IMG/VR virus record: IMGVR_UViG_3300033463_000098
Reading direction: 5' to 3' (one strand)
Length of the DNA stretch: 64,000 nucleotides
Source of the DNA: an uncultured virus (IMG/VR IMGVR_UViG_3300033463_000098)
Taxonomy: Duplodnaviria; Heunggongvirae; Uroviricota; Caudoviricetes
The notes beneath the pieces are model-generated. The model made no database searches, was not told where the DNA came from, and saw only the letters and a program-made list of their open reading frames with translations. Positions 16,332 through 34,406 of the stretch are shown here, in pieces. Numbering within the stretch: the stretch's first letter is position 1; the number at the start of each line of letters is the position of its first letter. The position numbers were made by a program, and so were the translations under genes.

Positions 16332-17582
16332 CTAAAAATTGTCCTTCTTTTTTATAACATGTCCATAATAAATACCAGTTCCTGACTGTTCAATTTCGTA
16401 ATATTGTTCTAAATCTTTCTTCAATGAAGTCCATTTACGTGGGTAGTCCATTTCCTTTATTAAATCTTCTTTATCTTGTTTAGTTAATTTCCTATTTAAA
16501 TAGCTTTGTGGCACAATCCATTCCTGCTTTGATATCTCAGTGAGTGATTTATTGCGTCGCATTTCTCTTTTCTCAGTTTCCGCAGCTTGACTATCATAAT
16601 TGTATTGAATTTGCCAGTCTCCGCGCTTGCGTCCAGGAAATTGTATTTGAATATCTTTGTTGCCGCTATGTACTATAACAATTTGTACATTATCATCTAC
16701 TAAATTCCAACCAGTAGCGTATGCTTCTGTGGCAATAATATCATCAATATTATCTGGGTAATTATGTTGATATTTTAAATGTTCAATAGTGGCTAATTGG
16801 GTGGTTGAAAGTTGTTTAGTAGAGTGGCGTGACCATAGACACATTACATTGCGCCCTGTATTTTGTTTGATTTCGCGCGCAAACTGCTCTGCGAGTTCAA
16901 TAGTGGGCGCGAAGATAAGGCGCTTGACATCTGGGTTTGAAGCCAATAGGGTGTGAACATTGGTATATGAGTATTTCTGGAATACTTCATATGCCATTAA
17001 TTGTTCTTGAATTTGTATTTCATTTATATAGGATTTTAGGCGCGGCCACTTTTCTAGGTTATCCGCGGTCGCGGTTAAACCAAACCACCAAACTCCTTGA
17101 AGTTCAGCCCAGTGGAAGAGAGTGTCTATGGCTACATAAGAGAGTGACTCATGCGCGAGTAGCAAACAAATCACTTCTTTATCACTTTCTGGGTTGCGTC
17201 GCCATATGTTGGCTTCATCTATGCGGACATATTTAATTAAATTATGAATTTCGTCGCACGCCACATAATCAAACATTGCAGAAGTGATTTCGCCGCGCTT
17301 TACCATCGCGCCAAATTTTTGATAGTTTAAAATATATGGTTTTTCCAGCTTTTCGCCCCACATTTGACATTCATCTAACGCAATTTTTTCTTCTTCTCCC
17401 ATTGTGGTGTCTATGAGAATGAGGCAACGCTGTGGCAAAATGCCTAATTGTTCTGGAATAGTGTGGATTGCGGCGGTAGTTTTACCCTGGCCGGTTTGCG
17501 CATTGATTAAATTCAATCGGCCTTTTTGATATTGCTGCTGCGTGGTGGTTAATGCTTCTGATAAATGGAGTCCTTCTTTCAT
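16332..17582 (-). CDS. superfamily 2 (DExH) helicase-like protein
   Basis: AQTGQGKT (I), ACDEIH (II), GLTAT (III), ATEAYATG, QFPGRKR (VI). Confidence 0.8.
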   Translation of the reverse strand: MKEGLHLSEALTTTQQQYQKGRLNLINAQTGQGKTTAAIHTIPEQLGILPQRCLILIDTTMGEEEKIALDECQMWGEKLEKPYILNYQKFGAMVKRGEITSAMFDYVACDEIHNLIKYVRIDEANIWRRNPESDKEVICLLLAHESLSYVAIDTLFHWAELQGVWWFGLTATADNLEKWPRLKSYINEIQIQEQLMAYEVFQKYSYTNVHTLLASNPDVKRLIFAPTIELAEQFAREIKQNTGRNVMCLWSRHSTKQLSTTQLATIEHLKYQHNYPDNIDDIIATEAYATGWNLVDDNVQIVIVHSGNKDIQIQFPGRKRGDWQIQYNYDSQAAETEKREMRRNKSLTEISKQEWIVPQSYLNRKLTKQDKEDLIKEMDYPRKWTSLKKDLEQYYEIEQSGTGIYYGHVIKKKDNF

Positions 17583-18444: not shown

Positions 18445-18564
18445 TTCAAATTGTTGACTTTTTGTAAATTAAATGGCCCGGGTATTATAATTTACATAGT
18501 TTTAACTTGACATGTTATAAATTATGATATATAATAAATGTATAAAAAGAAAGGAAATAAAAAT

Positions 18565-19248
18565 ATGGCATTGAAAATTTTGAGTAACAACAACATTACC
18601 TGTAATACTCATGATAGTGGTATTTATTTCTTTGGAGAACGCGGTCTTACCCCTGACGGCGAAGTATTTTGCTCCGTAAAGATTGGATGGGGTAGCGATT
18701 TATCAAAACGTATTTCTCAATATAAAACTTATAGTTGCCAATTATTCCATCAGCAACACCATGTTTTAACTAAAAAACTACCTGTTCCGCATGGATATGA
18801 TATGGAAACTTTTGCACATGCTATGCTTGTGCTGCTTGCTATTGGTTTGCCTTCATATAGCCGTGAATGGTTTTATGTAAGTGAGCCAGTATATTTTGAA
18901 TTGTGTAAAGACCCGTGGCAGATTTTTGATGTTAATAGAATGGAAGAACTAATTAAATTAGCGGAAAAAACTAAAAAGAACAATCGTTATTATATCAATA
19001 AAACTGAATATGATAAAATTTATCAACATGATAAGATGATGACAGAGCAAGTTATTGCTCGTGAAGATATTATTAAACGACAAGCAGAAGAAATTGAAGC
19101 ATTAAATAAAACAAAACAATCTTATTTTGAACTTATTCAGGCTTATGAAGAAGATAATAAATTTAAACAATATTATTATGAATATAGTATTAGATTTCAT
19201 CTTGCTCCATGGTGGAAAAAAATATTGATGGCATTGAATATTATTTAA
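18565..19248 (+). CDS. T5orf172/MUG113-like (GIY-YIG) domain protein with C-terminal coiled coil
   Basis: GIYFF...VKIGW...RISQYKT...E...H...REWF. Confidence 0.65.
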   Translation: MALKILSNNNITCNTHDSGIYFFGERGLTPDGEVFCSVKIGWGSDLSKRISQYKTYSCQLFHQQHHVLTKKLPVPHGYDMETFAHAMLVLLAIGLPSYSREWFYVSEPVYFELCKDPWQIFDVNRMEELIKLAEKTKKNNRYYINKTEYDKIYQHDKMMTEQVIAREDIIKRQAEEIEALNKTKQSYFELIQAYEEDNKFKQYYYEYSIRFHLAPWWKKILMALNII

Positions 19249-19334
19249 GAGGGTTACTCCCTCTTTTTTTTAATTACATGTAAATTAAACTACCCGGGCA
19301 CTCTATTTAACATTCCCTTAATAAAAAGAGGACT

Positions 19335-20051
19335 TTACGTCCTCTTTACATCCATCCAACAGTTGCGGCGGATGCCCTTGCCGTAGGGCATTGCTTTATG
19401 GCTGTCAAAGCATCGCCGCATGATATACGCTTCAATGAGAACATCTTCAAGTCCTTTGTGTTCTTCTTCAAATTGCGGCGAAAGTGTCAAGTAGCGGTAA
19501 ACATTTTCCGCGCTGGTGCTGATATTGCGCGCCTTTTTGTTTGTGCCATGACCGTTGCCGGAAAAAAGCTGATTTTCTTCACAGAAGCGGCGATATGTAA
19601 TGCGCTGGCAAATGGTTTGACAAGCCATATTCCAGATACAAACAAAGTTCGTATTGCGCGGGAAAAAGTATCTGTGTTTAGACTTTGTTAACCATCTTTG
19701 CGTGGTGTTGAGGGCGTTGCGGTCAAAGTGAGCGTTATAGGCAGCTACATCGTGAATATTATATTTCTCCATGAGGTCGAGAACATAGCGGCGGGCGGTG
19801 TAGAAGTCAACCATCTTGCGGTCGCCCGCATGAATAGCATCGACATATTCGGAAATCTTATTGGCATAGTAGGCAGTCCGCATGAGTTCGCGCTCATAAA
19901 CGAAAATGTCGCGGATAACGAAAGAAAAACTTTCGTAGATGTTACCCTGTTTGTCCGCAACCACACCGCCCAGATCGTAAACTAGCGGCTGTTCCAGTCC
20001 GTTTGTGGTTTCGGTGTCCAGAATCAGATAATACTTGATGCGCTTGTCCAT
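19335..20051 (-). CDS. DnaQ/DEDDh-like 3'-5' exonuclease
   Basis: LDTETT, AYNAHFDR, EEHKGLEDV. Confidence 0.85.
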   Translation of the reverse strand: MDKRIKYYLILDTETTNGLEQPLVYDLGGVVADKQGNIYESFSFVIRDIFVYERELMRTAYYANKISEYVDAIHAGDRKMVDFYTARRYVLDLMEKYNIHDVAAYNAHFDRNALNTTQRWLTKSKHRYFFPRNTNFVCIWNMACQTICQRITYRRFCEENQLFSGNGHGTNKKARNISTSAENVYRYLTLSPQFEEEHKGLEDVLIEAYIMRRCFDSHKAMPYGKGIRRNCWMDVKRT

Positions 20052-20217
20052 GAAGTGTATCTCCTTTCTTTGATGATATAAGTATATCATAGGCAGGAAA
20101 AGAAGTCAAGTTAAGTATTGGTTAATTTAATAACCCGGACAATATAGTTAATGAAGATTTAACTTGACCTTTCGCGCTTGCGGGTGTATAATGTAATTGA
20201 AAGTGAGGGGATGACTT

Positions 20218-20730
20218 GTGAAGTCCAATTACATTGTGAGAGCAAAGAAGTTTATGCGCGATTTCCTGCCTTATCTTGAGGCGTATGAATTTGTGGGCAG
20301 AGCCGTCCTTGCTTATAATGAAGCAAAGCACCGTCATGTTGAACATTATCATGGTTTAGTTAGGCAGTGCGTATGCTTGTCTGATTATGCTATCAAATGG
20401 GATTATAATGAATATTATGCTGATATTTATGGCGGGTGCAAGGAAGAAGTTATTAACTATAACTTCGCTCGCGAGCATGGCTATGAGTATCTTTTCGCGG
20501 AAATTACGCCGATTGAAATTTGTGGGCGTGTGTTTTATGTAATGCCGCGCGTGAAAAAGTTAGCAATTACGTTTGATGAATATGAACCCGATAACCGGCT
20601 GTCATATGATGAATATGAGTTTGTTTTTGGGGTTATGGGATTGCATGATATGCATGATGAAAACTGGGGCTTGGTTAATGGAAAAGTGAAAATCATTGAC
20701 TATGCGAATTATAAGAGAGAGGATGAATAA
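20218..20730 (+). CDS. protein-kinase-like (PKL-fold) protein
   Basis: GLVR...YAIKWD, CKEEV, HDMHDENWG, KIIDYA. Confidence 0.75.
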   Translation: MKSNYIVRAKKFMRDFLPYLEAYEFVGRAVLAYNEAKHRHVEHYHGLVRQCVCLSDYAIKWDYNEYYADIYGGCKEEVINYNFAREHGYEYLFAEITPIEICGRVFYVMPRVKKLAITFDEYEPDNRLSYDEYEFVFGVMGLHDMHDENWGLVNGKVKIIDYANYKREDE

Positions 20731-20962
20731 TCCTTTCTTTTTTATCTTTATGTTAATTATATAGTCCGGGTCATATAATTAACCGTCTTTTAACTTGACT
20801 TTTCTTAGATTTTCTGTTATACTATAATTGTTCCAAGGGCAGGGAGGTAAGGACGAAGAGCCAAGAATTAACAAAGTCTTAACTTGACTTTCCGCTGAAT
20901 CTCTGCTATAATAATCACAGAAAGGGCAAGGAAAAGCCCAAAAAACCAGAAAGGGAAACAAT

Positions 20963-21283
20963 ATGTCTATGAACGCCGCTGAGATCAAGTCCACCGCTCG
21001 CCAGATGACCATCGCTGCTATCATGCCCGCCTTGATGGAGAACGACGCTGTGAAGTTCGCGGATGCGTCCTTTGCCATCCTGCAGACCGTTGACGGTCAG
21101 GAAGTTTGGACGGAAGTTACCGTCAAGTCCAAGGCGTACAAGCCCACCAAGGTGTCGCCCGCGTTCGACCCCTTTGAGGCCGCGGAGGCGTGGGAGGCCG
21201 AGAAGAAAATCAAGGCCGATGCCAAGGCTGCCAAGGAAGCTGAGAAGGCCGCAAAGCTTGCGGCGAAAGAGGAGAAGGCGTAA
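20963..21283 (+). CDS. hypothetical protein with Ala/Lys-rich C-terminal tail
   Basis: promoter, conserved leader, GC-rich codons; paralog of 26211 and 26734. Confidence 0.8.
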   Translation: MSMNAAEIKSTARQMTIAAIMPALMENDAVKFADASFAILQTVDGQEVWTEVTVKSKAYKPTKVSPAFDPFEAAEAWEAEKKIKADAKAAKEAEKAAKLAAKEEKA

Positions 21284-21361
21284 GCCTTCTTCTTTTTTTT
21301 TATGGTATTGTTAATTAAATAGCCCGGGTATTAAAGTTAATATAAAATTAAAGAAGCGTGA

Positions 21362-21670
21362 TTAACACGCTTCTTTTGTTGCGGTTACGACAATACCAAT
21401 TTCATTGGTATTAATATAGCAATCGCCATATTCAGTTTTGATAGCAACGTCATATCCCATTGCTTGAAGTTTTTCAATGCTAATACGGATATTCTTAACG
21501 AGATCGGTTACACGCTGGCGTGCTTCTATTTCGCGCCGTTTCTTAACAATCTCCATGAGATCGTTAACAAACGGCTCAAGCTGGTCTGTTTTCATTGCGA
21601 GAACATCTTCCGCGAGCATGGCGAGAGCGGTTTCATTATATTCAGAAGAATGGTGCGAAACATCTTTCAC
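21362..21670 (-). CDS. hypothetical protein
   Basis: second gene of a two-gene cassette. Confidence 0.65.
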   Translation of the reverse strand: MKDVSHHSSEYNETALAMLAEDVLAMKTDQLEPFVNDLMEIVKKRREIEARQRVTDLVKNIRISIEKLQAMGYDVAIKTEYGDCYINTNEIGIVVTATKEAC

Positions 21671-21825
21671 GAATTTTTTGCTCCTTTCAAATTTTCCATC
21701 ATTAGGAGAATCTTTTCATACTCTTCCGCATAGCGGTAACGGTCAAACATTGCGAGACGTAAGCGGCGAATTTTAGGAGAACAAGGTTGCCGCGCAATCC
21801 ATTTACGAATTTTATCAAAGTCCAT
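21667..21825 (-). CDS. small hypothetical protein
   Basis: start MDFDKIRKW after AAAGGAG. Confidence 0.6.
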   Translation of the reverse strand: MDFDKIRKWIARQPCSPKIRRLRLAMFDRYRYAEEYEKILLMMENLKGAKNS

Positions 21826-21997
21826 TAGTTTATTGCTCCTTTCATTTTCTATATATATAATAGCAGAAATTAAATTAAAAGTCAAGTTAATAGTTTGTTA
21901 ATTTGAATAACCGGGCACCTTATTTTACATAATCTTAACTTGACTTCATATGTGATTTATTGTATAATGATATTAGAAAGCGAAAGGAGATTAGCCT

Positions 21998-22516
21998 ATG
22001 AAGTCTGATTATCGTGTTCGTGCGGAGAAGTTCCTGCGGTCTGTGTTCCCCTATATTCAGAACGTGCTGTCTGATGAGGACGCCGTTGCCGACGCAATCG
22101 CGGACTATAACCGCCATCACTCCCGCAAGGTGGAAGTCAACTATGGCTCCGCGCGGATTGCCCTCATTACCTCTGACTATGTGGTAAAGTGGGACTATGA
22201 TGAGGACAATGTTGCGGACATTGGCGGCTGTGAGAAAGAATGGGAAGTGTATTGCCGCGCGTGTGATGCTGGTATGTCCCATCTTTTCGCGGAAAGCACG
22301 TTGATTGACTATTGCGGCGTTACCTTTGAGATTATGCCGCGAATCAGGGCAATTGGTCCCACTCATCATAAGTATGATTTTCTTTATATGATTTCGGCGG
22401 CAGAGGAAATTTGGCTGCGTGAAAATGGCATATTGTACGACCTTCACCACTGGAATTGGGGTATTATGCGCAATAAGCCTGTGATTGTGGACTATGCCTA
22501 CATTGAAACGGAATAA
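21998..22516 (+). CDS. protein-kinase-like (PKL-fold) protein
   Basis: GSAR...YVVKWD, CEKEW, YDLHHWNWG, VIVDYA; paralog of 20218. Confidence 0.78.
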   Translation: MKSDYRVRAEKFLRSVFPYIQNVLSDEDAVADAIADYNRHHSRKVEVNYGSARIALITSDYVVKWDYDEDNVADIGGCEKEWEVYCRACDAGMSHLFAESTLIDYCGVTFEIMPRIRAIGPTHHKYDFLYMISAAEEIWLRENGILYDLHHWNWGIMRNKPVIVDYAYIETE

Positions 22517-22623
22517 CCGCATAAGCGGTTATTTTTTTATAGGAATGTTAATTTTATAGCCCGGACTATATATTTAACATATGGTTAATAAAAGAAAATC
22601 CCGCCTTGCGGCGGGATTTTAGA

Positions 22624-23010
22624 TTAGGCAAGCCGGTAGGTATTCGCCTTGCCCTTGGCCTCGGTCTTGATCAGTTCGGGCGCCATCTCCCGCAGGAGAA
22701 CCGCCTGAACCTTGCCGACAGTGAAATCGGCGGGCAGTTCGCCCTTGGCGACCTCAAAGAGATCCTTGGCGGTGATGTCCGCGGTGAGATAGTTCCGCAG
22801 AACAGGGGCGACCTTGGCGATCAGTTCCGCCCGCGCCTTGGCGTTCTGCTCCTTGCGCTTGGCGTTCTGCTTCGCCTTGGAAGCGTCAGAGCGGGACTTG
22901 CCAAGCTGGGCGACCATCTTGGAAATGACCTCGCGGACTTCGGTCTCGGTCTCGGGGATGAAGGTCAGAGCGGTGGACAGAGCGGCGGACTTGGTGATGA
23001 TGTTCTTCAT
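22624..23010 (-). CDS. putative winged-helix DNA-binding protein
   Basis: ITAKDLFE...FTVGKVQAVL...KANTYRL pattern; paralog of 24466. Confidence 0.6.
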   Translation of the reverse strand: MKNIITKSAALSTALTFIPETETEVREVISKMVAQLGKSRSDASKAKQNAKRKEQNAKARAELIAKVAPVLRNYLTADITAKDLFEVAKGELPADFTVGKVQAVLLREMAPELIKTEAKGKANTYRLA

Positions 23011-23275
23011 AATGATACCCTTTCTGGTTTGTGAGGTTTTCCTTCCTCTGTTGTGTATTCATTATAGCACTTTCGCGCTAGAATGTCAAGTTAACTGTTT
23101 GTTAAGAGTTTCGGGGTTGGCTTTGGGATTTGTTTTCCTTCCCTCTCAACAAATATAGTATAGCAGAATTTGAAATGAAAGTCAATACTTTTCTATGTAA
23201 AGATTAAGTAAAATACATAGTCCGGACTACATAATTAACATTGATTTAATAAAAGAATTAAGGCCCTGATGGGCC

Positions 23276-24292
23276 TTAATATCTGAAATCGCTTCCCATA
23301 TATTCCGCGAGGCGGTTAATCCTATTCATAAGCCCACGGCAATAATTGGAAACATCGCCGCCAGTTTCTTCTATTTTCGCGTCAATGTATGCCGTGATAG
23401 CATCAAAAACCGCGTAACATTCTACCATGTTAGGAACCTGCCGACGCATACAAAATTCATCGGTGCCGCCCAAGTCACGGAAGGGGAAGAACTTAATGCC
23501 GGGGGTCACGGCATGTTTTGTCGCAATCTTTGAAAGGATGAAAGTTTCGATTTCTGCGTCATTCAATGCGGTGTGAGACTCAATAAAGTCATACTTATTA
23601 ATCAAATACTGATAAGAAGATTCAGCGGAAGTTTTGAAGAATGTGCCGGAGTTGGTGAACATGCCGTGATTGATACATTCATTTTTATAGGTTGCGTTAT
23701 TAAGAAGGTGAGTAGTTGCCAAACCCCAAAGGTCAAACAACATATACTCATTGCCATGAAAACGGAAAATATCGGCTTCAAAATCAGGGTCGCCCTTATC
23801 TTTTCCCTTATTATCTGCGATAAAGGCCGCGCTCCTGCGCTGGAGATTTTCCCAAGCGAAGTAGTCAGGGCTATAAAGCTCACGGATATAAAGATCGGTG
23901 AAGGGAATGGCCTTTTTGAAATCGAACATGGCATTGAACGCGCCCACAGCGTCAACCTTCCCCAAGTCCTCAATAAAAATTTTCATAACATCATTCCAAG
24001 GTAAGACAGAAGTTTCGCTACGGGAAAGCATTTCAAGATAGATAGGACGCTTTTCGGCATAATATGCCGTGTTAAAGATGGCGGGAACAGAAAAGGTTTC
24101 GGCAATCAGAAATTGCTTTTTGTCATAGATATGGCCCTTTCGGTCGGTGATAGTCCACCCAATGTCATAAACAAGGGGCTTCGCAATCGCAATACGCTTT
24201 TTGCGCTCGGGGTCGCCCTGCGCGATTTCATTTGCGAAAGGGAGGGTCGCGGTTTCCGTATCAACTACCATGAAATACAATTTCTTCGCCAT
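23276..24292 (-). CDS. DnaQ/DEDDh-like 3'-5' exonuclease
   Basis: VDTETA, AFNAMFDF, ESHTALNDA; paralog of 19335. Confidence 0.85.
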   Translation of the reverse strand: MAKKLYFMVVDTETATLPFANEIAQGDPERKKRIAIAKPLVYDIGWTITDRKGHIYDKKQFLIAETFSVPAIFNTAYYAEKRPIYLEMLSRSETSVLPWNDVMKIFIEDLGKVDAVGAFNAMFDFKKAIPFTDLYIRELYSPDYFAWENLQRRSAAFIADNKGKDKGDPDFEADIFRFHGNEYMLFDLWGLATTHLLNNATYKNECINHGMFTNSGTFFKTSAESSYQYLINKYDFIESHTALNDAEIETFILSKIATKHAVTPGIKFFPFRDLGGTDEFCMRRQVPNMVECYAVFDAITAYIDAKIEETGGDVSNYCRGLMNRINRLAEYMGSDFRY

Positions 24293-24465
24293 TTTTAAAT
24301 CCTTTCTGGTTTACGGTGTTTTCCTTCACCTGATGGATATATTATAACACGGGGGAAGGGTTATGTCAATAGATTTTTATGTTAAGTCTGAGTGAATTAG
24401 ATGGGCCGGGAAATAAAATTAACATAGGGTTAAAAGAAGAACCGCCCTCGCGGGCGGTTCTTTTG

Positions 24466-24798
24466 TTACGCCTTCGTAAAGGTGAAGGCGTTCTTGCCGT
24501 TGTCGTGCTTAACGACCTCGTCGTTCCAGTAGTTACGCAGAGCGTAACCGACCTTGTTCGGGGTGAAGCCCTGCGGCCACTCGTCGCTCGCTTCAAAGAT
24601 TTCCTTCGCCGTCATCGGCTCGTTGCCCATCACGCCGAAGGCGATTTCCTTCGCCTCGTCGTAGGCGATGCGGTTCGCGTCGCGCTTCGCGTTCAGACGC
24701 TCATACTCGGCGTTGACTTCCTCGCGCAGAACAGACAGGTCAACAGTCTCGTCGCCGTTCAGGTAGTTGCGGATGGCTTCCAGAGTGTTCTTCTTCAT
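24466..24798 (-). CDS. putative winged-helix DNA-binding protein
   Basis: MTAKEIFE...FTPNKVGYALR...KNAFTFT. Confidence 0.6.
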   Translation of the reverse strand: MKKNTLEAIRNYLNGDETVDLSVLREEVNAEYERLNAKRDANRIAYDEAKEIAFGVMGNEPMTAKEIFEASDEWPQGFTPNKVGYALRNYWNDEVVKHDNGKNAFTFTKA

Positions 24799-24894
24799 AG
24801 TGTTATGTCCTTTCTGGTTTGTTGGGTTTTCCTTCCCTTTGATGTATTTATTATAGCACCGATTGGCTATAATGTCAAGTTAAGAGTTTGTTAA

Positions 24895-25035
24895 GGTTTA
24901 TCCCTTTTCGTTCGCCTTAACCAAATGCCTGCGGCTTCTCTCGCTTATTGGGAACAGGCAGTCGTAAGTTGCGGGGAGTACTTCGCGGGTACCAACGCGG
25001 TGAGTGGGCTATCCCCTGTTTCCTGCCCTCTCAAC
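24895..25035 (-). ncRNA. possible small non-coding RNA
   Basis: own TTGACA-17-TATACT promoter (about 25042-25070); GC-rich ~140 nt with no convincing RBS-led ORF. Confidence 0.35.
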
Positions 25036-25087
25036 ATATTTAGTATATCACGATTTCCGCTCTTTGTCAAGTTAAGATTTCGTGAAG

Positions 25088-25162
25088 TGGTGAGGGTGGC
25101 GGGAATCGAACCCGCGATACATGGATTAAAAGTCCATTGCCATACCACTTGGCTACACCCTC
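25088..25162 (-). tRNA. tRNA-Lys(UUU) with encoded CCA
   Basis: acceptor GAGGGTG/CACCCTC-A-CCA, anticodon arm ATGGA-CTTTTAA-TCCAT, T arm GCGGG-TTCGATT-CCCGC. Confidence 0.93.
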
Positions 25163-25304
25163 ATGTTTTGGGTTTTGGTTTCCCTCGCCCTCAACTGAAT
25201 ATAGTATAGCAGAAATTGAATGAAATGTCAATAGTTTAGAAGGTAAAGATTGTGTAAAGTATAGTGCCCGGACTATATATTTTACATAGAGTTAAAAGAG
25301 AACA

Positions 25305-25493
25305 CTATGCGTTCTCCCATTCTTCCCATGACTCCCAAAAAAGACCCCAATCATCACATTCTTCCATGGGGTCGTTAATGTAACAAACCCCGCCGCCATA
25401 ATAGGGGCAATCGGTACCGTTACACGGGCAATAAACCCATTCGCGCTTGCCAGTGTTGCGGTCAAAATGCTTACCATCACTTTCTCTAATCAT
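25305..25493 (-). CDS. small Cys-rich protein
   Basis: MIRESDG...YCPCNGTDCPYY...C...C; GGGAGG RBS. Confidence 0.65.
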   Translation of the reverse strand: MIRESDGKHFDRNTGKREWVYCPCNGTDCPYYGGGVCYINDPMEECDDWGLFWESWEEWENA

Positions 25494-25662
25494 AATAGTC
25501 CTCCCAATCTTCATAGGCTTCAATCTCGTATTCGTGTTCAAAGTTATAGTCCTTTTTCTTGTTAGGAATAATCTTGGTTACGGGATTGATGTTACCCCAA
25601 TCGCCGCGAATCTTGCGGACAACTTCATAGGTGGAATTGGTGTTCTTCTTATTCTTCTTCAC
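25486..25662 (-). CDS. small hypothetical protein
   Basis: GTG start after AAGGGGG; MKKNKKNTNSTYEVVRKIRGDWG... Confidence 0.55.
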   Translation of the reverse strand: MKKNKKNTNSTYEVVRKIRGDWGNINPVTKIIPNKKKDYNFEHEYEIEAYEDWEDYYD

Positions 25663-25820
25663 TTCTAAACCCCCTTTGATTTTAGGATTATGGTTTATCT
25701 CTTGGTTCTGAAACTATTATATCAAAAACAAAATGAAATGTCAAGTTAAAGGATTATTAACTTTATAACCCGGCTAGAATAATTAACATGATTTTAAAAT
25801 GAAATTAGAGGAATGGTTAA

Positions 25821-26090
25821 TTACCATTCCTCGTCTATGGAACCGCAGATTTCAAACATGTCACATCCACAATAGGGGTCATAGTTGGATTCGTCCACAT
25901 CATCGGGAATATTATCTTCATAATCTTCGGGGTCGTAAATTTCATTGCCCCAAAAATAAACGATGTTTTGAGGGTCGTTATATTCAACCTTTTCTACAAC
26001 CTCATAGAGACCGTGAAGGTGATGGTCAGCAAGGACAATAGCATCTTCGGGCACATTCTGGAGTTCCCTAATCAGTTCTTTAACAGTCAT
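25821..26090 (-). CDS. acidic hypothetical phage protein
   Basis: MTVKELIRELQNVPEDA. Confidence 0.75.
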   Translation of the reverse strand: MTVKELIRELQNVPEDAIVLADHHLHGLYEVVEKVEYNDPQNIVYFWGNEIYDPEDYEDNIPDDVDESNYDPYCGCDMFEICGSIDEEW

Positions 26091-26210
26091 AATTAAAATC
26101 TCCTTTCTTTTTCTATAAATAATATAGCATATTAAAAGAAAATTGTCAAGTTAATTATTAGTTAATTATATAATCCGGGCAATATAATTAACATAGAAAT
26201 AAAAAGGGGA

Positions 26211-26582
26211 TTACTCCCCTTCCTTTTCCTTTTTCGCGGCTTCGCGCTTGGCCTTGTCCTTGGCTGCCTTTTCCGCGCGGGCGGCGGCCTGTTCGGCCTT
26301 CTTCGCCTTCTTCGCGTTGTAGTCGGCAATCTCGGACTCCATGAGTTCTTCCGCGCTCATGTCCTCGCGCAGTTCGGCAACGATGGCGCCAATGCGGATG
26401 TAACGCTCCGCACCGTTAACATCCTTCATGAGGATGCCAAACTGGCGGTCGTTGATCTTCTCAAACCTGATAACGCTGTCCGCGATGTCGGAATATTCCT
26501 CATCGTCAAAGTAGTCGGGGAACATGAAGTGGAAAACTTCGTTGCGGAGAATGGAATCGACGACGGCCTTGGAAATCTTCAT
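26211..26582 (-). CDS. hypothetical protein with Ala/Lys-rich tail
   Basis: conserved leader, GC-rich codons. Confidence 0.8.
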   Translation of the reverse strand: MKISKAVVDSILRNEVFHFMFPDYFDDEEYSDIADSVIRFEKINDRQFGILMKDVNGAERYIRIGAIVAELREDMSAEELMESEIADYNAKKAKKAEQAAARAEKAAKDKAKREAAKKEKEGE

Positions 26583-26733
26583 AGTGTTTGCCCTTTCTGG
26601 TTTGGAGTGTTTTCCTTCACTTGTTGATATAAGTATAGCAGAAATTTAGGTAAATGTCAATACTTTTTTGTGTTAATTATCGGTAAAATAGAGTGGCCGG
26701 GCTATTAAATTAACATTGAATTAAAGAAGGGGA

Positions 26734-27132
26734 TTACTCCCCTTCGTGAATCATGGCATCAAGACCCTTTTCGTTAAGGTTCTTGATAACCTTGCGGGCG
26801 TTGCGCTTGCGCTCCTTTTCCTTTTCGGCGCGCTCTGCCTTTTCCTTGCGCTTGGCTTCCTTGTCCGCCTTATCCGCGAGGACAAGTTTCCAATCTTCGG
26901 CGGCGGCGTAACCGTCGTAAGCGTCATAGCCGCCATCGCCATTGCGGGAACCGCGAGGGATAGAGACTTTGATGAGGGCAAACTTTTCGTTACCTTCGGC
27001 ATCAACAACAGGCATTGCGAGTTCGCTTGCGCTAACGGGCATCACATCGGTTTCGTAGTGTTCGGACAGAAAGTTAATGAACGCGGCGAGAATGTCATTG
27101 CGGATTGCGGTTTCAAGAGACGCTTTACTCAT
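26734..27132 (-). CDS. hypothetical protein with Lys/Glu/Ala-rich tail
   Basis: start MSKASLE after the conserved leader. Confidence 0.8.
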   Translation of the reverse strand: MSKASLETAIRNDILAAFINFLSEHYETDVMPVSASELAMPVVDAEGNEKFALIKVSIPRGSRNGDGGYDAYDGYAAAEDWKLVLADKADKEAKRKEKAERAEKEKERKRNARKVIKNLNEKGLDAMIHEGE

Positions 27133-27207
27133 GGATGTTATCCTTTCTGGTTTTTTAGTGTTTTCCTTCACTTTCTGGATATAGTATAGCAGATTTGGGG
27201 AGAAAAG

Positions 27208-27360
27208 TCAAGTTAAGATTTCTTTAATTTCTTTCTTAATAAATTTAATCTTACATTCTTTACAGTAATAAATCTTAGGATATTTGGGCTGTTTGTTTCT
27301 TTCTACCCATAACGCACCTTGATGACATTTGGGGCAAAGACTCCAATATCGGTTAATCAT
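27208..27360 (-). CDS. small Zn-ribbon protein
   Basis: MINRYWSLCPKC...YCKEC; AAAGGAG RBS; stop lies within the next -35 box. Confidence 0.6.
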   Translation of the reverse strand: MINRYWSLCPKCHQGALWVERNKQPKYPKIYYCKECKIKFIKKEIKEILT

Positions 27361-27481
27361 TTGACTTTCTCCTTTCACTTTCTATAAATAGTATAGCACA
27401 ATTTTTATAAAAAGTCAAGTAAATTATTTGTTAAATTTATAGTCCGGCAAATTTAGTTAACATGAAATTAAAAAAAGTCGG

Positions 27482-27928
27482 CTACGCTGCCGACTTTACA
27501 AATTCTGTTAAGATTGTGAAAATTTCACTGGGTTCATATGCCGCGCCGTTGCCCCATGTGTCACGATTTTTCGCTTCATCATCAAACAGGCAACCGCTGC
27601 CGCAAGTTTCCCATTTGTTAGTACCATATGGAACGATTTTAATTTCATCCCATTTAACAGACGGCAGGTGAAGGCCAAGCCAAAACATTTTCGCGCCCGT
27701 CACAAGTGCGTCATATTCCGGCGTGCTGGACTTTGACAACCAAGAAATAACGCCGATTTCATAACCCATTTTCTGAAGGCGATTCAGATAGCGGGCAAGT
27801 CGCGAAAGATTCACAAGCGGGCGGGCGATTTCATAGGGCGTCGGGTCGCCGTCAATCAACATCGGAAGCCAGTTCTGAACCCCGTAAAGATCAGCGATTG
27901 TCCCATCCATGTCAAACCAGATTTTCAT
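27482..27928 (-). CDS. HAD-family phosphatase / 5'(3')-deoxyribonucleotidase-like
   Basis: MKIWFDMDGTIADL (DxDGT), K...LFDD. Confidence 0.8.
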   Translation of the reverse strand: MKIWFDMDGTIADLYGVQNWLPMLIDGDPTPYEIARPLVNLSRLARYLNRLQKMGYEIGVISWLSKSSTPEYDALVTGAKMFWLGLHLPSVKWDEIKIVPYGTNKWETCGSGCLFDDEAKNRDTWGNGAAYEPSEIFTILTEFVKSAA

Positions 27929-28065
27929 ATTGTGTTTGCTCCTTTCCTGTTCTGATATAAGTATATCAAAAATGGGGTAAAAAGTCAAGTTAAGATTATG
28001 TTAAATAGGCGGCCCGGGCATTATAGTTAACATTGATATAAAAAAAGTATAGGTGATACCTATAC

Positions 28066-28443
28066 TTAATTTTGTATGAAATAAAGTTTATGTATGTGGC
28101 GGTAAGTATGTTCAATAATTTCAACTTCGGATTGCCATTGGTCTGGATGCCAATTGATTTCTATGTTTTCACAATGCGCGGCATAATAATTTTTAACAAA
28201 GTCTACGGCTTTATTATAATTATTTGCGCGGTTGACAAGTTCTTGTTGTTCGGTGATAAGGCGTGTTTTTGCTTTGTCTTTCAATTCACCATCGGGGTAA
28301 AGTTCGACACAGCAGCGAGCAGTTTCTACGATGCTAACTTGGGCTTGTAGCCGTTTTGACATTACTAGCGCGGTGTCCCATTGCCGCTTATATTCCAACG
28401 TCCAGTTATTGTAATTCTTCACAGCTTTCTTCTTTCCAAACAT
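28066..28443 (-). CDS. hypothetical protein
   Basis: promoter, RBS and terminator within one cassette. Confidence 0.7.
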   Translation of the reverse strand: MFGKKKAVKNYNNWTLEYKRQWDTALVMSKRLQAQVSIVETARCCVELYPDGELKDKAKTRLITEQQELVNRANNYNKAVDFVKNYYAAHCENIEINWHPDQWQSEVEIIEHTYRHIHKLYFIQN

Positions 28444-28760
28444 ATTTTTATGCTCCTTTCAGCTTGTGCCTTAATTATAACAGCTTTCCAGCCTGCTGTC
28501 AAGTTAAGATTCTGTTAAGTCTAGCTTGTGACTGGCAACGCAAACAACCGGAACGCATCCGGCAATTAACACAAATTTAATCTGTGCTTTACTCAAAGTT
28601 AACACTTCCTTAACTTAAACATAACAATCACCTCTGTTACCTATATTCCACCATAGGGTATTGTACCACATTCGCGGCGAGTTGTCAAGTTAATTGTGTG
28701 TTAATTAGAGTGCCCGTGCAATTTGTTTAACATAGGATTTACATAAAAAAAATTGGCTCC

Positions 28761-28970
28761 TTAGCGGCGCCAATTTTTGTCATTTTCGGTGATTTCGCCG
28801 GTGTCGGGCGTGAACTGGTAGAATTTGCCATTATCGCAGTGGATGTTAATTTGGAAGAAATTGTTAACTTCCATTTTTTCAATCGCGGGAATGTTGAAAG
28901 TCCAACCAAAGAAAGCATCAAACGCGGCGAGAGCGCCTTCAAAATCGCGGAAAGACATTGCCTTATTCAT
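28761..28970 (-). CDS. hypothetical protein
   Basis: MNKAMSFRDF after GAGGAG. Confidence 0.7.
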   Translation of the reverse strand: MNKAMSFRDFEGALAAFDAFFGWTFNIPAIEKMEVNNFFQINIHCDNGKFYQFTPDTGEITENDKNWRR

Positions 28971-29112
28971 TGTTTGTTCTCCTCTCAATTCGTCGTTTTT
29001 TATTTTATTATATCATATATTTTTGATTTGTCAAGAGGTTTTTAATGTAAAATATTGGTTAACTATAATGCCCGGGCTATATAGTTTACATATGCTTAAT
29101 ATAAGAAAAGGG

Positions 29113-29421
29113 TTAGCACCATGCTAACCCCATTGTGCGCCAGTTGAGAATTGAAAGTTGGTTACATTCGCGGCCGATTTTCATTGCTTCACGCTTTGTG
29201 TTAACGCGTTTGGATTTATCAATGTAATAAATCCCGTCGCTGTACCAAATGCCGCAATTGCCTTTGTATGCTTTTACGGCGTTAATTGCTTCGCGTGCGT
29301 CTTTGGTTTCGATGCCTTCGGTTGCTACTTGCCATCCGGTTTTATAGGTGATGATTTTCCCGCGCTTCAAAGTCAGGCCGTCATTGTTAGAGAGCTTGCG
29401 AATGGTACGAATGTTAATCAT
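29113..29421 (-). CDS. hypothetical phage protein
   Basis: MINIRTIRK after GAGAGG. Confidence 0.7.
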   Translation of the reverse strand: MINIRTIRKLSNNDGLTLKRGKIITYKTGWQVATEGIETKDAREAINAVKAYKGNCGIWYSDGIYYIDKSKRVNTKREAMKIGRECNQLSILNWRTMGLAWC

Positions 29422-29546
29422 GGTGGAAACCTCTCTTTCGTTTGTTTCTGATATGATTATACACCTTGGGCATACGATTGTCAAGTTAAAAGTGTGTAAA
29501 CTATATAGCCCGGATAATATAATTAACATTGAGTTTACGAAAAGTA

Positions 29547-29783
29547 TCACCCATGTGGGTGATACTCATATCGTGCGCACATAGACGCGTAACGATAAGC
29601 GACACGGTAAAGATCGCTGTCGTTAAGCGGCTGGATGTAAGTTGGGTAGGGTTCGCCGCTTTCATAGATAGCGGCATGGCGTGCGCCGTCAATAACGACA
29701 AATTTAACACGCACATAGCAAGTCTTGCCCTGAAGAGAAAAGCCATCAACATCACGAAACATCAACATAACAACAACCTCCAA
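29547..29783 (-). CDS. hypothetical protein (start uncertain)
   Basis: fills a cassette between promoter and hairpin. Confidence 0.5.
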   Translation of the reverse strand: MEVVVMLMFRDVDGFSLQGKTCYVRVKFVVIDGARHAAIYESGEPYPTYIQPLNDSDLYRVAYRYASMCARYEYHPHG

Positions 29784-29904
29784 TATCTTGATTACAGTAA
29801 CAGTATAACATAAAAAGTAAAATAAAGCAAGTTAATTGTACGTAAAATATATAGCCCGGGCAATATAATTAACATAGCAATAATAAAAAAAGAATTGAGT
29901 TACC

Positions 29905-30048
29905 TCAATTCTTTACAACGATTTTGAGAAACCAAAGATATTGTGGCTGTTCATAAGACAGATAATCAACCGCAATGCGCGCTTTAAGTTTATCATAGAA
30001 AACGATGGTCTTTGTTTCTGCGGTATTGGTTACGATGTACTTTGTCAT
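29905..30048 (-). CDS. small hypothetical protein
   Basis: MTKYIVTN after GGGAGG. Confidence 0.6.
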   Translation of the reverse strand: MTKYIVTNTAETKTIVFYDKLKARIAVDYLSYEQPQYLWFLKIVVKN

Positions 30049-30187
30049 GATTTTATCCTCCCTTGATTTATTGACTATATTATACCACAACAAGAAAAGA
30101 AAAGCAATGATTCTAAATGTAAAATTTGGGGAAATTAAAAAGCCCGGGGTATATAATTAACATTTGTATAATAAAAAATTTGAGGGA

Positions 30188-30373
30188 TTAATCCCTCAAA
30201 TCTTTTTCTGAAATGATGGTCATGCTGCCGAAAAGGTAGATAGTCGGATCATAAATCTTGTTGCGGTTGTTCCACAGGAAATTGCGGGCGGCGCGAGTAG
30301 TGTAGAAGAATTCGTCCTTGAGATCAAAAGAGTTCATGTCGATGTAGTAGATGACATAAAGCGGAAGATTCAT
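30188..30373 (-). CDS. small hypothetical protein (paralog of 31193)
   Basis: shared FYTTRAARNFLWNNRNKI. Confidence 0.75.
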   Translation of the reverse strand: MNLPLYVIYYIDMNSFDLKDEFFYTTRAARNFLWNNRNKIYDPTIYLFGSMTIISEKDLRD

Positions 30374-30489
30374 AGTGACAACCTCTTTTCTTGATTTCTT
30401 GAGTATAGTATACCATATACATACGGAAAAGTCAAATTAAATAATGGTAAACTATAATGCCCGGGATATGTATTTAACATAGATATAAT

Positions 30490-30662
30490 AAAAACCGTGG
30501 CGGTTAGCTACTCTGCCACGGTTGGCTCAAACATTACTGATTCGCCACATCAGCAGGGAACGGTTCTCCAAATTTGGGCATCCCATTTCTACCGCCAAGT
30601 AGTGGTTAGCCCTTGCATCAGTAGGGCGGCATCCTATCAACGCTCCTCTCTCCCTTTCGACA
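30490..30662 (-). ncRNA. possible sRNA (or 37-aa TTG-start peptide) cassette
   Basis: TTGACT-17-TATAAT promoter, GC-rich body, ACCGTGGC...GCCACGGT-TTTT terminator. Confidence 0.4.
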
Positions 30663-30758
30663 AGTCTATTATAGCAAAAAATCCAATAGAAGTCAAGTTA
30701 AAAGCAAGTAAAATAGAATGAACGTACAATGTAATTAACATAAATAAAAAAATTGGGA

Positions 30759-31046
30759 TTACTCCCAATTTTCAATATATCCACTATAACGAATATTGAT
30801 GATAATATCATCATAAATTATTTCTGTTCCGTTATCTTCCATAATCGCGGCGATAATATCGCCCTTTTCATAATCTTCAATGTCGCTCCACAACCATTCA
30901 TTCCCATTAAAATCAATAAGAATGAGCATGTTTTGCGCGCGATCAATGTCATTTACAAAAAAGGTTTGCGGGTAAATTTCGGCGCGAGCGGTAGAAAAAG
31001 CAACGACCATAGCAAACAGAGCAATGATGGCGATAAACTTCTTCAT
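30759..31046 (-). CDS. secreted/exported small protein
   Basis: signal peptide MKKFIAIIALFAMVVAFSTARA|E. Confidence 0.75.
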   Translation of the reverse strand: MKKFIAIIALFAMVVAFSTARAEIYPQTFFVNDIDRAQNMLILIDFNGNEWLWSDIEDYEKGDIIAAIMEDNGTEIIYDDIIINIRYSGYIENWE

Positions 31047-31192
31047 AAATATTCTCCTTCTGGTTTTTAAGTGTTTCCTTCACTTGTTGTATATAGTATA
31101 ACACGAGATTATTATAGAGTCAAGTTAAATAATTGTAAAGGGCAATAAACGTACATTCTATTTAACATTGAAATAATAAAAGAAATGAAGGA

Positions 31193-31378
31193 TTAATCCT
31201 TCAAATCTTTTTCGGAAATTTCAGTCATGCTGCTGAAAAGATAGATAATTACATCATGAATTTTGTTACGATTATTCCAAAGAAAATTGCGGGCGGCGCG
31301 GGTAGTATAGAAATAACGGTAAATCGCGGCATTAGTGTTGTTGTCAATGTAATCAATAGAATACAGAGGGAGACTCAT
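31193..31378 (-). CDS. small hypothetical protein (paralog of 30188)
   Basis: MSLPLY...SEKDLKD. Confidence 0.75.
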   Translation of the reverse strand: MSLPLYSIDYIDNNTNAAIYRYFYTTRAARNFLWNNRNKIHDVIIYLFSSMTEISEKDLKD

Positions 31379-31439
31379 AGTAAATACCTCATTTTCGGGA
31401 TTGTTGGTTGCTTTCCTTTGGAACAATTATATTATAGCA

Positions 31440-31690
31440 AATGAAAATGAAATTGTCAATATGAAATTAGGAAATTTAATTTGAAATTAACATAAGTTTG
31501 GGGGTATTAAAAATGAAAATGAAATTGCATTTTAGGAATATAAAATGAAATTAAAATTGAAATTGAAATTATGGGAAATGAAAATGAAATTGCATAATGG
31601 GATATTTCATATTAAATAAAAATGAAATTTCAGGAAAATGTTTAAAAATGAAATTCTAAAAAATATTACAATAAAATAAAATGAAATTGC
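31440..31690 (+). repeat. AAATGAAATT(G) repeat tract
   Basis: more than 10 copies; the same word occurs at 15478-15500 and 15560-15577. Confidence 0.75.
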
Positions 31691-31869
31691 ACGTGTAAAC
31701 ATAAAGTAAAGAATAAAGTACGTGTATTTGAATTAACATAATTATAACAGATAATTTTATTTAGTATTATGTTTATTATTGCTATTATTTTTAGTACGTT
31801 ATATAAATTTATGTTTTTATATATTAATGTGTTTTTATATAGAGTTAATAAAATATTAAATAGTATAAT

Positions 31870-31907
<38 letters not shown>

Positions 31908-32032
31908 AATTATAATATTATTTATTTTGTTATTAATATTATTACAATTAATAATATTGCTGAGTATTTTTATTATTATTATTATTAATTATGTTTATTT
32001 AATTTATTTATTTTATAAATTAATAAATTATA

Positions 32033-32203
32033 TTAATGGAAAAAAGCTGGCAAAAGAATTAAGAATAAAAGTGCGATAATTAGAGTAATACTATCAAAAA
32101 TATAACCGCTAATCAACAATATAACTTTTTTAATATCGTTAAAAGTTAACCTATAAAACCACATTTTAATTTTATAAGAAAAGGAATTTCGAGAACGTTT
32201 CAT
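32033..32203 (-). CDS. small membrane protein
   Basis: MKRSRNSF...ITLIIALLFLILLPAFFH; AAGGAG RBS. Confidence 0.55.
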   Translation of the reverse strand: MKRSRNSFSYKIKMWFYRLTFNDIKKVILLISGYIFDSITLIIALLFLILLPAFFH

Positions 32204-32446
32204 GGCTTATATCTCCTTTTTGTTTCTATACATATATTATACTATAGTTTTATTATAAAAGCAAGTATAAAATTAAAGCTATATTATGACAAAATATTTA
32301 TAAGATTTAATTTTTAAGTCTAATTTATTTTAATTTTATGTTAATTGTATTCAACGCGCATTTCAATTTACTTTTTTTTAACTTGACATTTCATTTCCAT
32401 TTTGCTATAATATGTATAACACAGAAAAGAAAGGGGATTTTTTAAA

Positions 32447-32587
32447 ATGAAAGTTTACGTTATTGATTGCAATGGTTTTCAAGGTAGTGCTTACTATTCT
32501 CGTTTTGATGAAGCGCAAGCCGCGGCCATTTGGCGTACTAATTGCACAGGTATGGAATGGAAAGTGCGGGAGTTAATACTCCCGTAA
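32447..32587 (+). CDS. small hypothetical protein
   Basis: TTGACA-17-TATAAT, AAAGGGG RBS, MKVYVIDCNG... Confidence 0.65.
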   Translation: MKVYVIDCNGFQGSAYYSRFDEAQAAAIWRTNCTGMEWKVRELILP

Positions 32588-32710
32588 TTTCATTTTAAGT
32601 TTATGTTAACTGCACTGCACGTTGTTTATATTTTACAATTTTTTAACTTGACTTTTCATTCTCAATATGCTATAATCATTCTAGAAACAAACGAAAGGGG
32701 ATTTCCTAAA

Positions 32711-32860
32711 ATGACTAAGCATAATACCGTTCGCGTGTGGGAAGATTTGACCGATCAGGAACAGATTTATATGTGGTGGGGCTATAACGCGGCAAATCCC
32801 GATGATCCAGTTTCATTTCCAACTTTTGATGAAATGATGCAGGGATTCACTTTTGAGTGA
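32711..32860 (+). CDS. small hypothetical protein
   Basis: MTKHNTVRVW after promoter and AAAGGGG. Confidence 0.65.
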   Translation: MTKHNTVRVWEDLTDQEQIYMWWGYNAANPDDPVSFPTFDEMMQGFTFE

Positions 32861-32940
32861 ATCCCATAATTTATATTATCATAATGTTAATTATATAGCA
32901 CGTAAATTTTAATTAACATAATTTTAAAATAAATGGTATG

Positions 32941-33126
32941 TTAAACATACCATTTCATAATATGCATTGCTTCTTGAATCTCGCGGCACGACCACGTTTC
33001 AAACGTAATTATTAAATAACCATCTTCAAGTCGTTCCGTCATGTAATCAAGTCCGGCATCTGCCAACTGCTCATACATGTGCTCAAGAGAAGAATTGATC
33101 TCAATGATAAAAGACTTTACGAACAT
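32941..33126 (-). CDS. small hypothetical protein
   Basis: promoter and GAGG RBS. Confidence 0.65.
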   Translation of the reverse strand: MFVKSFIIEINSSLEHMYEQLADAGLDYMTERLEDGYLIITFETWSCREIQEAMHIMKWYV

Positions 33127-33307
33127 TTGGAATTTACCTCGCTTTCCTAACTTTCAAGAATATCCTATCATACAAATTCCAAAATGTCAAGTTAATTGAT
33201 TGTTAATTACAATGGACGTACTGTATATTTTACATACTTTTTACTTGACATTTCGTAAATGATATGATATACTATTTATAGAATTAAAGAAAGGAATGGT
33301 ATCCCGA

Positions 33308-34212: not shown

Positions 34213-34338
34213 CCAGCCCCAGCCCAGCTTCCAGCCCGGCCCAGCCTCCAGCTCACCCCAGCTTGCAGCCTAATCCCAGCTTCCAGCTTCCAGCTTCCAT
34301 AAGAACTTCCAGCTTGCAGCTTCCAGCTTGCAGCTTCC
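34213..34338 (+). repeat. CCAGC(T)-rich short repeat tract
   Basis: about 14 (C/G)CAGC words, e.g. CCAGCTTCCAGCTTCCAGCTT. Confidence 0.85.
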
Positions 34339-34406
34339 TCACACGTATAAGGTCCGGCGGGCGCGGGCGCTGTCGCTCTTGGCCTGCACTGTATGCATGG
34401 ATCCCG

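Follow-up and report, generated by a model that had tools for sequence, protein, structure and literature searches.

What do seven early genes of an uncultured tailed phage gain from carrying the same small RNA fold directly against their ribosome-binding sites? The question arises in a 64,000-nucleotide (nt) stretch of the record IMGVR_UViG_3300033463_000098, which is the window analysed here and to which all coordinates refer. An earlier note, made from the sequence alone, had described seven leader hairpins with changing stems and a common loop, each followed by a Shine-Dalgarno (SD) sequence and an ATG, and had read them as a cis-regulatory RNA of the CsrA/RsmA type. We find that the hairpins are real, and that each is half of a compact H-type pseudoknot, the remaining helix of which had been overlooked: the GG of the loop pairs with a CC just 5' of the SD. 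The element is a real, uncatalogued RNA motif, and its coupling to both SD and start codon suggests an undescribed way of starting translation.

A pseudoknot in seven leaders

All seven hairpins were located in the window at, or no more than 2 nt from, the places claimed for them; the coordinates were generally right, the one placed at about 23035-23050 being about 2 nt off (its stem is 23033-23048). AAACC and the SD lie downstream of each hairpin as described, with the ATG 8-10 nt past the 7-nt SD, and the window copies begin 9-12 nt after the -10 box of a promoter of the TTGAC/TGNTA(T/C)AAT type. Chance does not produce such a set. A strict pattern matches six times in the window against a mean of 0.00 (0 matches in 100 dinucleotide shuffles), a looser descriptor of stem, loop and linker matches seven times against a mean of 0.19 and a maximum of 2 in 100 block shuffles, and a covariance model built from 88 copies recovers precisely the seven at 33-56 bits, the next best candidate scoring 10 bits. 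The Rfam search that had been proposed as a check gives no match to the element; only a tRNA-Lys reaches the gathering score in the window, and at E<=10 nothing meaningful appears over 18-35.5 kb.

The claim that the stem sequence changes while pairing is kept holds in a far larger sample. When viral DNA was scanned with just the loop and the downstream box held constant and the stem free, at least 186 stretches were returned, and among the matches listed 206 distinct viral copies formed our test set for the first stem (P1), copies near locus ends being left out. Counting outward from the loop, the four P1 positions are paired in 204, 206, 206 and 179 of these 206 copies, with three or four Watson-Crick types at each, and a fifth position is paired in 68; G-U pairs occupy just 5 of 824 cells. 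In a genome collection a stem of at least three base pairs (bp) was present in 84 of 95 copies, and the remaining 11 are mostly chance matches in unrelated taxa. The 5' flank of the element is not conserved.

Pairing between loop and linker

Among 245 distinct downstream boxes, 218 have the standard loop, and 26 of the other 27 have a variant loop that keeps GG (judged by eye); CC is likewise kept among the downstream boxes with such loops. That both are retained when the loop varies suggested a helix between loop and linker (P2), which was then tested by scans. When loop base 3 was forced off G with its partner left free, 15 distinct matches were found; all five with a stem of at least 4 bp were compensated downstream (two A-U, three C-G), against Watson-Crick pairs in three of the ten with shorter stems. 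With the loop intact and the linker changed there were two matches, neither with the stem. For 7-nt loops with both partners left free, 129 distinct matches were obtained: 66 have a stem of at least 4 bp and 62 of these form a Watson-Crick pair (51 G-C, 10 C-G, 1 U-A; the other four are A.A), compared with 21 of the 63 with shorter stems. Both P1 and the loop-linker pair covary in these larger sets.

Longer forms of P2 also occur. A scan for 3-bp P2 gave 20 stretches, nine of them with a stem of at least 4 bp; six of the nine, on six contigs and promoter-linked, are fully paired with G-C/C-G swaps at the third pair, and three are not. More 3- and 4-bp forms are found in loci L189 and L222. The pair at the junction of the two stems behaves otherwise: a dedicated scan for changes there gave 50 unique matches, none of them with a stem of at least 3 bp, and this invariant G-C pair therefore lacks covariation support of its own. 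The second pair over 357 copies is G-C in 260, C-G in 77, A-U in 15 and U-A in 5, and a single genome mixes types, with one G-C copy and three A-U copies. The end of the third loop (L3) is ACA in 8 of the 15 stems closed by A-U but in just 2 of the 191 remaining ones; such an association would be expected of a minor-groove triple and so hints at one.

Not all counts carry equal weight. Two gap-free alignments, comprising 124 of 239 cores chosen for a paired P1 and equal length, show P2 as G-C 84, A-U 2 and C-G 2 (88 copies) and as G-C 27, C-G 6, A-U 2 and U-A 1 (36 copies); P1 counts from them are circular because pairing was preselected, and the 206-copy test is the unbiased one. A descriptor blind to P2 finds it paired in 357 of 370 copies, 5 of the 13 misses being mis-parsed ACA forms, which is not an unbiased rate since most loci were fetched with GG and CC fixed. 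A metagenome scan for P2 variants gave a stem of at least 4 bp in none of 112 unique sequences among the matches listed, these being uninformative chance matches, and a loose viral scan likewise returned mostly chance matches.

Covariation shows with high confidence that the fold of the leader is an H-type pseudoknot, compact and about 24 nt long. By the same evidence, and with the same high confidence, P1 has 3-6 bp (mostly 4), the first loop (L1) is A-A or A-G, P2 has 2-3 bp with the junction G-C invariant and the second pair covarying freely, the second loop (L2) has 2-5 nt with A at its end, and L3 has 5-6 nt ending in AAA or ACA. P2 ends immediately on the 7-nt SD, RGAAAGG, which is complementary to the final 7 nt of the Clostridia 16S tail.

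Several observations weigh against this fold. The four A.A cases at P2 are one unrelated four-member family without a promoter, and P2 pairing is absent in locus L411. ViennaRNA finds P1 marginal (z from -0.2 to -2.8), places the intended stem in the lowest-energy fold of five of the seven window leaders and predicts an alternative mini-hairpin between CC and the GG of the SD in five of the seven. The copies are also related by descent, and our covariation counts ignore the tree. The CC:SD-GG mini-hairpin was considered as a conserved switch in its own right and rejected, variants with CG, CU or CA being unable to form it.

Coupling to SD and start codon

To characterise the ribosome-binding site we compared 422 promoter-proximal genes from the window and loci L001-L080, of which 137 have the element and 285 do not. 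The 16S tail from a carrier genome ends CCUCCUUUCU (mature end assumed), and RGAAAGG, which starts right after P2, matches its last 7 nt. What follows is unusual. Of 124 carriers a single one has AG or GG after GAAAGG, completing a GGAG or GGGG core, compared with 101 of the 155 leaders that lack the element; AG in that position occurs in 0 of 352 carriers overall. The avoidance goes with contact with P2, the G-rich core being present in 1 of 206 copies where the SD abuts P2 and in 13 of 24 where it does not. The spacer to the start codon has a median of 8 nt in 124 carriers against 11 nt in 37 element-free leaders with the same short SD, from which hidden variants and G-core leaders had been removed (p=4.5e-13); counted by family the values are again 8 and 11 (35 vs 83 families). 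Mis-called starts are ruled out as the cause, a start codon at codon 2 occurring in just 1 of 137 carriers. Statistically, therefore, the SD of carriers avoids the usual G-rich core and the start codon lies about 3 nt closer than in element-free leaders of the same phages.

By family, SD pairing is weaker in carriers (-10.2 vs -12.4 kcal/mol), and an AGG-N-AU extension is mildly enriched (71 vs 49+-6 of 352). Codon adaptation is higher in carriers by gene (0.62 vs 0.39), but high expression inferred from codon bias was rejected, as the difference is gone when families are counted. A related claim, that the element precedes mostly GC-rich genes, is true of the window, where GC content at third codon positions (GC3) is at least 0.60 in five of seven genes, but does not extend across families (0.47 vs 0.44, p=0.64).

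Three element-free leaders of the window, at 27418, 21940 and 28502, resemble the 5' arm of the element fused directly to an AAAGGAG SD. This is the pattern expected from a deletion between two AAGG repeats, and so a possible route of loss or gain.

Distribution across mobile DNA

The element stands ahead of very different genes: 343 copies precede 94 protein clusters, 230 of the copies falling in four clusters. Five complete phage records, 179-200 kb in size among the complete element-carrying records, have 2-8 copies each, confined to a single cluster of 1-10 kb with none elsewhere. Other carriers are integrase islands, a relaxase/ParAB element and a Zot-bearing inovirus-like prophage. No protein common to all four carrier types was found when five regions were compared with the window and L001-L080; a helicase links islands with phages, and an integrase links islands with the inovirus.

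Most copies lie 7-15 nt past a -10 box, with the P2 end mostly 14-17 nt before the start codon. The description as a 5' leader hairpin fits the window in this respect but not every copy elsewhere, for island copies sit after stop codons inside operons, which ties the element to the ribosome-binding site and not to the transcript start. Some copies also lie behind a separate 5' hairpin. Other small hairpins, of GTTCC..GGAAC and GGTTG-AGGGAAA-CAACC types, occur at transcript starts, often ahead of the pseudoknot (L032, L047, L051, L061, L072; islands L193, L199 and L244).

A pattern scan of 401 genomes of the class gave 30 matches against about 25 in a reversed control (judged by eye), one of them near-genuine. 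Above 29 bits, the covariance model found the element in 1 of 150 class genomes, which is the seed, and in 4 of 121 family genomes, just 47-58 candidates being scored per genome; the three family genomes beyond the seed hold the same island family. No copy was found ahead of a host core gene in the sampled genomes. The Clostridia island family (L831, L832, L834, L865-L867) has an integrase, a helicase related to window 16332-17582 and a run of at least three paralogous genes of about 140 amino acids, the majority with the element in front of them. These islands may be satellites of the phages described here.

How might the element act?

If the ribosome melted the pseudoknot before binding, an ordinary SD and spacer would be expected; carriers use a different and mutually exclusive solution, from which we infer that the 30S subunit binds with the pseudoknot in place. 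That the folded pseudoknot stays on the initiating 30S and replaces the SD core is the reading we favour, at slightly less than even odds. The host 30S would bind the leader with the pseudoknot still folded, and P2 would abut or stack on the short SD-antiSD helix, standing in for the missing GGAG pairs. Because the inner anti-SD would be left unpaired, the helix could take up a position, or move to one, some 3 nt closer to the P site. This could happen with a short terminal SD helix stacked on P2 and displaced toward the P site, or by capture in a 7-bp register followed by a 3-nt slide, as the mild enrichment of AGG-N-AU might indicate. The element would then be a portable initiation module for the first-expressed genes of phages and other incoming elements, with transcription by way of sigma-A promoters of the host type. 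The weakest step in this argument is that the effect on output would be an increase and not a decrease. In a Firmicute the position of the SD helix on the platform and spacer length do covary (PMC13009471, in the part bearing on spacing). The fullest form of this reading, which we put forward tentatively, is that, in the phages of gut Clostridia and in their other mobile elements, a common 24-nt pseudoknot docks beside a truncated SD helix on the platform of the host 30S and sets the geometry between SD and start anew, much as an internal ribosome entry site (IRES) might, for the first-expressed genes of incoming DNA only and possibly with priority over host messages. The structure is well supported, and the function is proposed from sequence statistics and covariation. 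A further idea, mimicry of an anticodon loop, was dropped, since the SD separates the element from the start codon.

A number of points tell against initiation on the folded element. An enhancer acting through the host ribosome would be expected in host genes, where none was found. Most carriers were fetched with AGAAAGG fixed, and the rate at which the SD abuts P2 is thus biased, the following bases and the spacer being free. One copy, L833:4918, has an abutting SD followed by AG, and by family codon adaptation does not differ (0.39 vs 0.36, p=0.59). Known H-type pseudoknots beside an SD repress: the preQ1-I RNA of Carnobacterium attenuates translation even though its SD has moved 10 nt away, and a ligand-stabilised pseudoknot beside the SD represses even without burying it (PMC11625349, as far as its account of this RNA goes).

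That precedent leads us to retain, as the main rival, unlikely but serious, an off switch of the preQ1-I type, in which a small ligand or a protein would stabilise the pseudoknot and block the 30S. On the same unlikely footing, the A that invariably ends L2 might recognise a pyrimidine as the ligand, the weak SD would widen the dynamic range and the early genes would be shut off jointly. The topology is that of class I preQ1, H-type with an A-rich L3 and P2 on the first SD bases (PMC11625349, same account), the marginal fold in ViennaRNA makes a stabiliser plausible, the weaker SD of carriers fits, and the leader pseudoknot of T4 gene 32 is a repressor site (PMC3014915, in its treatment of that operator). 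Yet the pair that forms the conserved pocket floor in preQ1-I is the one that varies among the 357 copies, the 94 unrelated clusters downstream lack any pathway logic, no protein shared by the four carrier types was found in the DNA compared, and an unfolded ON state leaves the shorter spacer unexplained. We consider it distinctly improbable that the element serves stability, either because 5'-to-3' decay is stopped by the pseudoknot (alone or together with a parked ribosome) or because a GGAG-free SD escapes a RegB-like cutter. The position of most copies close behind the promoter would suit a roadblock of the kind that stabilises mRNA in Bacillus (PMC3997798, in its discussion of 5' roadblocks), but known stabilisers need occlusion of the 5' end or a strong SD, whereas the SD here is weaker and copies inside operons or behind another hairpin are not terminal. 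RegB does cut GGAG in early SDs (PMC3014915, where it treats early messages) and GGAG is avoided here; GGGG is avoided too, no RegB was found over the cut-off in the five complete phage records, and the spacer shift is again left unexplained.

The remaining readings are much less probable. The idea that abundant early mRNAs carry a ToxI/CptI-like pseudoknot as a decoy for a type III toxin recalls the small H-type pseudoknots of type III antitoxins and the pseudo-ToxI of a phage (PMC5086642, as those antitoxins are presented there), and the element is confined to mobile DNA in the genomes sampled; single copies locked to an SD in place of tandem repeats, with an unconserved 5' flank and an SD coupling that a decoy does not explain, make it very improbable. 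A gene adjoining one copy (L209:2034-2582) has no Pfam match and looks like a possible type III toxin. The CsrA/RsmA operator of the earlier note, with one GGA in the loop and another in the SD, is harder still to sustain. Such targets have a conserved, unpaired GGA in the loop. GGA is indeed present in 323 of 357 loops and missing from the other 34, but its GG is base-paired and can be swapped, loops with AACG, AAAG, AAUG, AGCCG and AGCUG being compensated downstream; a search for csrA found none in 5 related phage records and none in 5 copy-carrying host genomes, which may be incomplete. What stands of that interpretation is a conserved, covarying cis-acting RNA element tied to the ribosome-binding sites of early cassette genes. 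Equally hard to credit is an inverted repeat near the promoter, read on double- or single-stranded DNA: the few G-U pairs in P1 among the listed copies, judged low for an RNA helix, would fit, whereas a double-stranded site could not yield loop-linker covariation and it is with the SD and start codon, not with the promoter, that the element keeps a fixed position.

Relationship to known RNA elements

The closest likeness is to class I preQ1 riboswitches (RF00522), with which the element shares a very small H-type pseudoknot, a short P2, an A-rich L3 along P1 and a P2 that ends at the first SD bases (PMC11625349, same account). It differs in having A in place of the ligand-reading C before the 3' strand of P1: the 26 variant loops of the free-loop set (by eye) and all window copies end in A, where preQ1-I needs UC or AC. 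Atop the 5' strand of P1 the free-loop set has AA, AG or GA and preQ1-I has U or UU. The closing pair is variable, and the element is shorter and resides on mobile DNA. No queuosine genes were seen among the seven window genes, which have no Pfam match over the cut-off, or among those of the 94 unrelated clusters that were scanned. RF00522 itself has no match in the window at E<=10 and none at the element positions in five carriers. By specificity base, L1 base, gene context and Rfam score, the element is not preQ1-I.

Nor, by the features tested, does it qualify as a CsrA site, as a type III antitoxin or as a gene 32 operator. CsrA/RsmA sites share the GGA found in most loops, about 20 nt from the SD, which here is paired and dispensable. 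Type III antitoxins are likewise small H-type pseudoknots with A-rich loop contacts, but come as non-coding units in tandem that a linked toxin excises (PMC5086642, in the same presentation), whereas the element is a single copy per leader, fused to the SD and placed before unrelated genes. The T4/T2 gene 32 operator is an H-type pseudoknot in a phage 5' leader that acts on translation; it serves a single autoregulated gene, whose product binds it 67 nt upstream (PMC3014915, same treatment), with an AU-rich tract leading to the ribosome-binding site, in contrast to an element that abuts the SD, ends mostly 14-17 nt before the start and precedes 94 protein clusters. The extended SD of Staphylococcus aureus provides another Firmicute case in which SD-helix position and spacer change together, there with extra start-proximal pairs that lengthen the spacing (PMC13009471, same part) and here with a 5' pseudoknot, a shorter helix and a shorter spacing. 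Bacillus-type 5' stabilisers have a strong SD or 5'-terminal occlusion, against a weaker SD and internal copies in our case. No description of the element was found in the literature searched; PMC5737381 and later surveys of microbiome RNAs have supplementary lists of motifs that could bear on its novelty.

Structure beside an SD is normally taken as inhibitory, and here compensatory changes preserve a tiny pseudoknot in front of hundreds of genes on mobile elements, where it is accompanied by its own type of SD and spacer. Should it prove compatible with the ribosome, Firmicutes would have a previously unrecognised rule for initiating translation, and a portable part of 35 nt would be available for expressing genes in Clostridia. 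Should it prove a switch, phage early genes would be under the joint control of an operator or riboswitch-like element even smaller than preQ1-I. The natural compensatory variants make either reading testable.

The seven cassettes

The window is a piece of a large tailed phage of gut or rumen: profile searches place portal and virion proteins at 40-50 kb, and distant relatives of the capsid region occur among phages of Enterococcus, of Clostridioides and of the gut. The host is probably a member of the Clostridia, judging by the genome records in which the element is found. Between 18.5 and 35 kb lie about 30 small cassettes, mostly a consensus sigma-A-type promoter, a single gene and a terminator, and the nearest record to the window, G001, has the same six strict-pattern copies.

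Only the first cassette with the element is on the + strand. Its sigma-A-type promoter (20884-20912) is followed by the pseudoknot and SD at 20924-20954 (P1 20924-20927/20936-20939, loop 20928-20935, CC 20946-20947, SD 20948-20954) and by a gene for 106 amino acids (20963-21283; no Pfam family, GC3 0.78). The other six are on the - strand. In the second, the promoter at 23061-23089 and the element at 23019-23048 (P1 23048-23045/23036-23033, CC 23027-23026, SD 23025-23019) precede a 128-residue gene (22624-23010; no Pfam family over the cut-off, GC3 0.83), a paralogue, by eye, of the gene starting at 24798. The third has its promoter at 24341-24369, its element at 24301-24330 (P1 24330-24327/24318-24315, CC 24309-24308, SD 24307-24301) and a 338-residue gene matching phrog_20187 (23276-24292), of which a paralogue at 19335-20051 lacks the element and also matches a DNA polymerase exonuclease profile. 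The fourth, with its promoter at 24850-24878, has a 3-bp P1 (element 24809-24837; P1 24837-24835/24826-24824, CC 24817-24816, SD 24815-24809); its 110-residue product (24466-24798) is predicted to form a long helix and a winged-helix-like domain (predicted local distance difference test, pLDDT, 81), and a fold search gave no PDB match at E<=0.001 and weak matches to winged-helix folds. The fifth (promoter 26632-26660; element 26592-26621, with P1 26621-26618/26609-26606, CC 26600-26599 and SD 26598-26592) serves a gene of 123 residues at 26211-26582, whose closest Atlas clusters are unnamed and all viral, and the sixth (promoter 27183-27211; element 27142-27172, with P1 27172-27169/27160-27157, CC 27150-27149 and SD 27148-27142) a gene of 132 residues at 26734-27132 with no Pfam family. 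The seventh belongs to the non-abutting class: behind its promoter (31095-31123), the element at 31054-31085 has a 5-bp P1 (31085-31081/31073-31069), a 7-nt loop, CC at 31063-31062 and a GGAG-bearing SD, AGAAGGAG; the 95-residue product of its gene (30759-31046) has a hydrophobic N-terminus and no Pfam family over the cut-off.

The surrounding region has further features of its own. A 33-bp dyad box, TGT(T/A)AA-N8-CCGGG or GTACGT-N9-TT(T/A)AC, recurs over 18463-33234 between the terminator and the -35 box of most cassettes (30 matches over both strands, about 22 sites), and is probably the DNA site of a phage or host regulator. A 60-nt non-coding unit at 20824-20883 (+), between tandem promoters at 20795 and 20884, is kept in 16 of 80 compared loci. 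Four gene-free, promoter-driven units that fold, at 24896-25042, 30491-30668, 28506-28660 and 23093-23157 (all -), have look-alikes in 3, 1, 3 and 1 of 80 loci respectively and no Rfam match, and are candidate small RNAs; the unit at 23157 has the AAGGAAAA loop and lacks the stem. The tRNA-Lys, with anticodon UUU, occupies its own cassette at 25088-25162 (-). A Thg1 guanylyltransferase (7398-8237), an AAA_33+HD kinase/phosphatase (10179-11060) and a T4-type RNA ligase (14042-15259, -) are likely a tRNA repair set. Beyond the last element-bearing cassette a very AT-rich non-coding stretch extends over 31460-32030 (GC 0.22 over 31-32 kb), and a block of short direct and inverted repeats lies at 34330-34620.

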